A stretch of 64,000 nucleotides of DNA, from NCBI RefSeq assembly GCF_035084215.1, contig NC_090369.1:1736001-1800000 (forward strand), read 5' to 3'. The position numbers were made by a program, and so were the translations under genes. The notes below the pieces were generated by a model, which worked only from the letters and a program-made list of their open reading frames with translations, did no database searches and was not told where the DNA came from. Source of the stretch: Heptranchias perlo (taxonomy: Eukaryota). Numbering within the stretch: the first letter of the stretch is position 1; each line of letters begins with the position of its first letter. Below, piece by piece: positions 4,801 through 7,800 of the stretch.

Positions 4801-7800
4801 CCCAAAAAGCTGTTGAGGCTGGGGGGGTCAATTGAAGATTTCAAAACTGAGATTGATAGATTTCTATTGGGTAAGGGTATTGAGGCGGATAGATGGAGTT
4901 AAGATACAGATCATGAACGGCAGAACAGGCTTGAGGGGCTGAATGGCCTCCTATTCCTATGTAAGGACCAAGACTCAGAGTAGGGCACCCTGAAATTTGA
5001 AAAGGCTAGAAAGAAGTTGAGGTGAATCAGGAAGTGGTGATTATCATGACACCAAGCTTGGGTTTTCAAAAAAGCCTGCAGATTTTAGGAGGGAAACCAC
5101 AAGGACACAGAAGGGTCTGACATGGAGCCCAGGTCTAGGCCTGACCAGATGTTTCACCTTTCCGATCGAGGGTGGCAGCTCCGGCCTTCAGGAGCCGACT
5201 GAGAAAATTTATGTTGTCCTGCATCTCATTCTGGGTGTTCCGCAGGGCTTTTGGATCCTTATTCAAACTGTCAACTTCACTTTTCACTGTTGGGTTCTCG
5301 ACGATGAACCGGCTCTTCTCAGTGTCGAAGCGACTAAGTTGGTTTGTATTGTAAGCCATGCTCCACGAACAACCAGTTACATCTTTCAGAGAGACTGCTG
5401 CTCGGTCGCATACCAGCAATTGTTGCACCACATCTGGCGGGGGAAATAGGGACACGACAGAGGATATAAGCTGTTTCTGACGGGAGAACTGACCGAATAC
5501 AGTAATAATAGGAAAAGGCAAATCATAGAATGATACAGCGCAGAAGACCATTCGGCCCATCATGCCTGTGCCGGCTCTTTTGAAAGAGCTATCCATTTAG
5601 TCCCACTACCTTTCCCCATAGCCCTGCAAATTCCCCCCTTCAAGTTTTTAATCTGATTCCCTTTTGAAAGTTATTATTGAATCTGCTTCCACCACCCTTT
5701 CAGGCAGCGCATTCCAGACCATAACAAATATAATGCTTCAGACGCTAACTGCACTACACCAGGATGTCAGCTACTTGGGCTGAAATCATCCTGTGGGATA
5801 TTAAATGACTTGTATTTACACATTGGTGTCTTATTACATCTCTCAAAAACATTCTAAAGCACTTCACATTCAGAGGGTTATTTTGAAGAGCAGTGTCTCC
5901 TGTTATGTGGGCAATCAAGGCAGCCATTTTGCACTTGGCAAATCCCAGATAGCAATGAGATGATGGACCAGTTAATCTGGGGGGGTTTTTTGAGGGAGGA
6001 ATATTGACCAGGACACGGGAAGAACTACCTGCTGTTCTCATTGTAGAGTCATGAGATCATTTACGTCTACCTGAACAGGCCGACGGGGTCTCGGTCGAAC
6101 ATCTCATCCAAAAGGCCGCACCTCCAACAATCCAGCACGCCCTCAGATATCCCCCGAGGTTCTGATATTATTTACAGGGGATCCCCAGGAATGAGTCAGT
6201 ACTTACAAGAGGCTGATAGAAATGTGCTGCTATTTCCAGGCAATCTCCGGGAATGTGTCAGTATTCACAGTAGATTATGTCAATGTTTACAAGGGTTCCC
6301 TGCAGTGTGTCAGCATTTATTTGGGGGGGGGGGCGTCCCTGGGATTGTATCAATATTTATAGGGGGAGCCCTGGGAATGTGTCAGTATTTACAGGGGGTT
6401 CCCGGTAGTGTATCAGTATTCATATGGGTCTCTGGGAGTGTGTCAGTATTTACAAATGGTTCCCAAGAGTGTAACTGTTTACAGGGGTTCCTAGGATTGT
6501 ATCATTATTTACAGAGGATATGTGGGAGTGGTGTCATTATTTACAGAGGATATGTGGGAGTGGTGTCATTATTTACAGAGGATATGTGGGAGTGGTGTCA
6601 TTATTTACAGAGGATATGTGGGAGTGGTGTCATTATTTACAGAGGATATGTGGGAGTGGTGTCATTATTTACAGAGGATATGTGGGAGTGGTGTCATTAT
6701 TTACAGAGGATATGTGGGAGTGGTGTCATTATTTACAGAGGATATGTGGGAGTGTTGTCATTATTTACAGAGGATATGTGGGAGTGGTGTCATTATTTAC
6801 AGAGGATATGTGGGAGTGGTGTCATTATTTACAGAGGATATGTGGGAGTGGTGTCATTATTTACAGAGGATATGTGGGAGTGGTGTCATTATTTACAGAG
6901 GATATGTGGGAGTGGTGTCATTATTTACAGAGGATATGTGGGAGTGGTGTCATTATTTACAGAGGATATGTGGGAGTGGTGTCATTATTTACAGAGGATA
7001 TGTGGGAGTGTTGTCATTATTTACAGAGGATATGTGGGAGTGGTGTCATTATTTACAGAGGATATGTGGGAGTGTTGTCATTATTTACAGAGGATATGTG
7101 GGAGTGTTGTCATTATTTACAGAGGATATGTGGGAGTGTTGTCATTATTTACAGAGGATATGTGGGAGTGTTGTCATTATTTACAGAGGATATGTGGGAG
7201 TGTTGTCATTATTTACAGAGGATATGTGGGAGTGGTGTCATTATTTACAGAGGATATGTGGGAGTGTTGTCATTATTTACAGAGGATATGTGGGAGTGTT
7301 GTCATTATTTACAGAGGATATGTGGGAGTGTTGTCATTATTTACAGAGGATATGTGGGAGTGTTGTCATTATTTACAGAGGATATGTGGGAGTGGTGTCA
7401 TTATTTACAGAGGATATGTGGGAGTGGTGTCATTATTTACAGAGGATATGTGGGAGTGTTGTCATTATTTACAGAGGATATGTGGGAGTGTTGTCATTAT
7501 TTACAGAGGATATGTGGGAGTGTTGTCATTATTTACAGAGGATATGTGGGAGTGTTGTCATTATTTACAGAGGATATATGGGAGTGTTGTCATTATTTAC
7601 AGAGGATATATGGGGTGTTGTCATTATTTACAGAGGATATGTGGGAGTGTTGTCATTATTTACAGAGGATATGTGAGAGTGTTGTCATTATTTACAGAGG
7701 ATATGTGGGAGTGGTGTCATTATTTACAGAGGATATGTGGGAGTGGTGTCATTATTTACAGAGGATATGTGGGAGTGTTGTCATTATTTACAGAGGATAT

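Follow-up and report, generated by a model that had tools for sequence, protein, structure and literature searches.

How can the membrane-distal domain of an MHC beta chain be held together if the disulfide bond that ties its sheet to its long helix cannot be formed? The question is raised by a gene of the shark Heptranchias perlo, found in a stretch of 64,000 nucleotides (assembly GCF_035084215.1, contig NC_090369.1, positions 1,736,001 to 1,800,000; hereafter the window). Its beta1 exon encodes the first cysteine of the classical pair, lacks the second, and has another cysteine on what is predicted to be the neighboring strand. The features of this gene and of its putative partner are collected in Table 1.

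Table 1. Features of the WB gene and of the adjoining WA gene (positions in the window)
Feature	Positions	Strand	Basis or remark
Exon 1, leader peptide (coding part)	8975..9080	-	tblastn with P0001; borders read off the sequence
Exon 2, beta1 (membrane-distal) domain, WB_DS3-type gene	5158..5433	-	protein mapping and spliced contigs
Strand 1 Cys (TGC), column of class I C101 / class II beta C15	5408..5410	-	predicted to end strand E2-8
Strand 2 second Cys (TGT), column of HLA-A G112	5369..5371	-	predicted to start strand E21-27; Dataset S1 column 27
Asn (AAC) in the long helix, column of C164 / beta C79	5213..5215	-	alignment and HMMER register
Exon 3, beta2 Ig C1 domain, P57 and G61, no W61	3097..3378	-	tblastn, contigs, Dataset S2 numbering
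Exon 4, connecting peptide and transmembrane segment	1690..1800	-	tblastn
Alpha1 exon of WA Nds3L-like gene, no Cys	18914..19174	+	by-eye match to Nds3L rows; 3' border uncertain (19144, 19165 or 19174)
Alpha2 exon of WA partner, beta2-microglobulin-like (Y8, F37, F57, W61)	21529..21807	+	sequence and PDB matches
CxxGxxxGxxG motif, WA transmembrane segment	23129..23161	+	sequence; exon borders not fixed

What kind of gene carries this exon? The beta1 exon (276 nt, phase 1, AG/GT borders, open frame) is part of a 307-aa protein of Heptranchias perlo, P0001, which NCBI names "class II beta chain-like". Four exons inside the window match P0001, the 99% match being most likely due to the first GTG being read as Met, and the tail exons lie past the window start. 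Exon mapping, together with the beta1-beta2 joint seen in contigs, gives an architecture of class II type: a leader, a membrane-distal domain, one Ig C1 domain, a transmembrane segment and a tail. A conventional MHC class II beta chain was considered and rejected, as position 61 of beta2 is Gly and not Trp and the column of C79 is occupied by Asn; the NCBI name is an automatic label. In comparison with the rows of Dataset S2, the beta2 motif LPNSDGTF provides P57 and G61 in place of class II W61, and both residues are marks of the W-category (Okamura et al., 2021; PMC8713811). Thus, a sequence-only reading of this DNA was right to take the exon for WB beta1: it is spliced and encodes the beta1 domain of a beta chain from the W-category of MHC. 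Among the class I-like residues of beta1, Q6 and A32 are kept, and positions 35 and 37 are Thr and Gln, respectively. Since D37 is absent in 5/5 published DS3 rows too, and position 35 varies among them (Dataset S1, PMC8713811), G35 and D37 do not define all WB chains. Intron 1 of the WB gene contains a long tandem array of units of about 32 bases (6495-8220), and further tandem arrays lie near 37150-38060. Open frames at 773-1507 and 14517-14801 resemble what we take to be fragments of LINE reverse transcriptase, and near the window end, on the minus strand, lies an exon-like open frame belonging to another gene (62999-63301).

Cysteines that appear or disappear in a single genome are naturally suspected of being artifacts. 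Contigs of all four runs (RNA presumed, not recorded; one sample of one study) cover positions 5158-5434 without any differing letter, so that a sequencing slip is ruled out, and they splice position 5158 to 3378 over a 1779-nt GT-AG intron. There is next to no chance that the pattern comes from a misassembly or from a decaying pseudogene: nothing was found in favor of this explanation, the exons are intact and match the 307-aa protein, and both the spliced contigs, with their zero differences, and the conservation of the pattern across orthologues rule it out.

The translated exon has its cysteines at residues 8 and 21, 13 residues apart, and no other cysteine in the domain. The earlier reading had assigned the first to the C101 column, the second to about the position of G112, and an Asn to the helix column of C164, and all three assignments hold. 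HLA-A G112 corresponds, by eye, to column 27 of Dataset S1 (PMC8713811), where the DS3 rows have Cys. The Asn sits within the stretch QDNINFL, and an HMMER comparison with MR1 puts the helix into a register identical to that of the published alignment, in which the C164 column of DS3 is, by eye, Thr. As judged from the encoded residues, then, the canonical strand-to-helix disulfide is impossible in beta1 of this WB_DS3-type gene.

To which W subgroup does the gene belong? Sequence comparison places the exon in an orthologue of WB_DS3, a W-category subgroup already published. The closest named relative is P0002 of Triakis scyllium, whose 90% cluster includes BBO94057.1 (P0004), the "WB_DS3_01 precursor"; identity to this Triakis WB_DS3 (P0002) is 61/91 in beta1 and 52/93 in beta2. 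Proteins of Pristiophorus, Scyliorhinus, Carcharodon, Chiloscyllium and Cetorhinus match beta1 at 41-59/91 residues, the three other WB genes of the same genome at 14/88, 15/88 and 20/78, and the exon has a single match in the genome. A search of representative proteins added a single orthologue, P0005; its other hit, P0006, is repetitive and unrelated and was discarded. The seven orthologues counted here are one protein per species, the near-duplicates P0004 and P0014 and the Carcharodon isoforms P0009 and P0011-P0013 being excluded. In a beta2 tree they cluster at 91/90, below the star threshold, and separately from the DS1 chain of the same genome; in the beta1 tree, DS3 is not resolved from that DS1 chain, which has a long branch. 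In all seven both strand cysteines are kept, always 13 residues apart, and the helix cysteine is absent. Chance is ruled out, since both cysteines belong to the 25 columns (of 91) that are invariant in 7/7 orthologues. The C164 column varies among them (N, T, N, A, S, G and F), and therefore the Asn itself is not the marker. Carcharodon and Cetorhinus DS3 (P0007 and P0010) have a third cysteine at beta1 position 23, which is Trp in the other five orthologues.

How unusual is this arrangement among MHC molecules? We counted by eye the 48 WB beta1 rows of Dataset S1 (PMC8713811). The canonical pair alone is present in 28/48 (4 Nds5L, 22 teleost and 2 lungfish WB2 rows), and cysteines in columns 12 and 27 without the helix cysteine are found in 10/48, namely 5/5 DS3 and 5/5 salamander rows. 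The coelacanth WB1 row combines the cysteines of columns 12 and 27 with the canonical helix cysteine and with an extra one four residues earlier in the helix. The remaining rows are three with column 12 only, five DS1 rows with none, and one partial skate row without the helix cysteine. In the same alignment the helix cysteine is absent from 19/48 WB rows, as against 3/39 class I and 0/32 class II rows, and of these 71 rows (class I alpha2 and class II beta1) none has a cysteine in column 27. The near-invariance that had been assumed for the C101-C164 pair thus describes class I and class II well (helix cysteine in 68/71 rows) but not WB (29/48). The pattern had also been thought novel and a possible mark of a distinct WB lineage. 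Neither idea survives the alignment with the published subgroups: the gene is the published WB_DS3, and the pattern is documented in Dataset S1 for every DS3 row as well as for the salamander rows. It is ordinary for the WB_DS3 subgroup, and is extended here to further sharks.

Documentation in an alignment is not the same as description. The main text of PMC8713811, in its available form, names cysteine twice and disulfide once, in figure legends only and never for this pair; its SI Appendix may discuss it. The W-category literature and a broader cysteine literature (25 of 81 matching papers), mostly without subscription papers, gave no further account of a strand cysteine pair, and the available parts of PMC12619710, PMC13399432, bioRxiv 10.1101/2025.08.27.672527, PMC8236899, PMC8010645 and PMC4471590 do not describe it.

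Do the two cysteines bind each other? AlphaFold2, run on beta1 alone with 10 sequences and no alpha1 partner, gave a model (mean pLDDT 91.6) with strand 1 at residues 2-8, a short loop helix at 10-14 and strand 2 at 21-27. A full-length AlphaFold model, poor overall (mean pLDDT 53, pTM 0.36), has the same two strands with the same ends, at E38-44 and E57-63 in its own numbering. The beta1 model superposes on class II beta1 (HLA-DQ beta) with Z 9.8 and rmsd 2.4 over 85 aligned residues, and the fit begins at beta 8; provided there is no gap at its start, Cys 8 would coincide with beta C15. Foldseek with the beta1 model found no match at E<=0.001, and no W-category structure was among the best-listed rows of the PDB sequence or fold searches. 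In HLA-A2, residues 101 and 112 are cross-strand neighbors on the helix-facing side of the sheet and form a non-hydrogen-bonded pair, a register that tolerates cross-strand disulfides. In both models of the Heptranchias chain Cys 8 ends strand 1 and Cys 21 opens strand 2, which makes a cross-strand disulfide likely, although the matching strand ends only suggest the register of the hairpin. The coelacanth WB1 row counts against it too, since its column 27 cysteine may bond to the helix. In the Heptranchias chain the loop between the two strands is predicted to have 12 residues, two more than in HLA-A, and a short helix, with the two cysteines opposite one another at its opening; the disulfide between them would close the strand 1-2 hairpin. 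It would be formed in the ER and would brace an edge of the platform that has no Ig domain beneath it. The pb11-pb74 bridge, the canonical one, stabilizes a region of the platform that no Ig domain touches (PMC8236899).

Could the two cysteines serve something other than each other, such as an inter-chain bond, a metal or a covalent ligand? Odd numbers of cysteines in related beta1 domains speak for this, there being three in Carcharodon and Cetorhinus DS3 and three in both Nds5L-like exons of the Heptranchias genome; the third cysteine of the two DS3 chains, two residues past the second, could permit other pairings. We consider it improbable all the same, as the alpha1 exon of the WA partner has no cysteine to offer, the beta1 domain is extracellular, and the pair is kept together in 7/7 orthologues at a spacing of 13 and closes the hairpin in both models. 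Another possibility grants the hairpin bond and takes it as a replacement for the canonical one, with the consequence that the beta1 helix becomes mobile and the DS3 groove is reshaped and adjustable. [quoted passage not shown] Mobility of the helix is nevertheless unlikely. Helix positions 63, 70, 74, 76, 77, 80 and 81 are hydrophobic in 7/7 orthologues, the block of residues 51-80, with pLDDT of 94-98, is the most confident part of the beta1 model, and DS1 chains persist without any beta1 disulfide at all.

The sequence-only reading had proposed that a bond between strands 1 and 2 takes the place of the canonical one and frees the helix. The bond is plausible from the strand ends of both models; the freed helix, its sequel, is not supported, in view of the conserved hydrophobic face and of the DS1 chains, which have neither disulfide. 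The explanation that we prefer, and regard as probable, is that the exon encodes a WB_DS3 beta1 domain without the helix cysteine, in which the strand cysteines are likely bonded across the hairpin and the long helix is predicted to be packed by conserved hydrophobic residues. The helix would stay on the sheet through these residues instead of through a covalent tie.

With what would such a chain pair? Pairing of WA with WB is a textbook case. The surface heterodimer was shown for tiger salamander (PMC8713811). In the window the WA and WB genes lie head to head, and both WA exons fit the published Nds3L rows by eye. The best PDB sequence matches of the alpha2 exon are beta2-microglobulin, with W61, F57 and Y8 present and no W37, and its position 55 is Phe rather than Leu, as in great white shark Nds3L. 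The WA transmembrane segment contains a CxxGxxxGxxG motif, which is named in PMC13399432. The WB chain would thus pair with the adjoining WA Nds3L-like chain as a heterodimer of class II shape. Such a WB_DS3/WA molecule is presumably non-classical and without peptide cargo of the class I type. W subgroups are reported to have neither full sets of peptide-binding residues nor high polymorphism (PMC8713811).

This pair is not alone on the chromosome. Contig positions 1655618-1757807 (from L034:9618-9896 to window position 21807) hold four WA/WB pairs in a cluster, each arranged head to head. Judged by eye against Datasets S1 and S2, two are DS5-like/Nds5L-like, one is DS10-like/DS1-like and one Nds3L-like/DS3; the first three are on the same contig within the 110 kb that precede the window. 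Three WA/WB pairs were reported for great white shark (PMC8713811). The DS1-like beta1 exon (L040:5166-5423) has zero cysteines. Both Nds5L-like beta1 exons (L036:2730-3002 and L039:750-1022) have three, the extra one being two residues ahead of the canonical first cysteine, at a floor position, as it is in 4/4 published Nds5L rows. A single genome therefore holds beta1 domains with the canonical pair (Nds5L), with the hairpin pair (DS3) and with no pair (DS1), and offers a natural test of what the sheet-to-helix disulfide is for. Heptranchias perlo becomes one more shark in the WB_DS3 subgroup, its W cluster having four WA/WB pairs, and the cysteine pattern is useful as a subgroup marker.

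How could one cysteine pair have been exchanged for another? As a tentative scenario, which we would not put above the alternatives, the cysteine of strand 2 may be an ancient mark of one WB lineage that predates the split of sharks and bony fish and includes shark DS3, coelacanth WB1 and salamander WB. Coelacanth, with its four cysteines, would then represent an intermediate, and after loss of both helix cysteines the strand cysteines would have re-paired within the hairpin. In the published rows, compared by eye, a four-residue gap of beta2 seen in Nds5L and lungfish WB2 is missing from DS3, coelacanth WB1 and salamander WB, which fits their common descent, and it is missing from DS1 as well. 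The homologue searches did not recover salamander or coelacanth WB, whose comparison with DS3 was made by eye. If the scenario is true, it would mean that a disulfide was switched in the course of MHC evolution, which goes unmentioned in the main text of the W-category paper as available, and if the link between DS3, coelacanth and salamander holds, it would help to sort WB relationships that are unresolved in the published Ig-domain trees.

It is instructive to set the Heptranchias chain beside the systems known already. It agrees with published WB_DS3 (PMC8713811; BBO94057.1) in the cysteine pair at spacing 13, the lack of a helix cysteine, the loop length and the head-to-head WA gene. It differs in having Asn instead of Thr in the C164 column, Val instead of Asp before the first cysteine, and Thr at position 35, no DS3 row of Dataset S1 being from Heptranchias perlo. 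With classical class I alpha2 and class II beta1 (C101-C164 and C15-C79) it has the fold, the first cysteine, Q6 and A32 in common, whereas the published classical rows keep the helix cysteine (36/39 class I, 32/32 class II) and G35 and D37 are absent in Heptranchias DS3. Coelacanth WB1 shares both strand cysteines with DS3 but, unlike it, retains the canonical helix cysteine together with its neighbor four residues earlier. The salamander rows (Chinese, Hokkaido and tiger salamanders and axolotl) have the same two columns filled and the helix cysteine absent in 5/5, with the cysteines 13 residues apart in two rows and 12 apart in the other three, although they are otherwise very divergent from DS3 and their H1 region is shorter. 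Lastly, WA_DS10 alpha1 has a cysteine pair between strands 1 and 2 on the same hairpin as DS3, but on an alpha chain and on the next rung (columns 10 and 29). Both cysteines are present in 6/7 published rows and neither in skate; the DS10-like alpha1 exon of the Heptranchias genome (L041:2491-2754) has none, like skate. By analogy, the strand pair of WA_DS10 may be seen as a parallel case for a disulfide that closes the hairpin.
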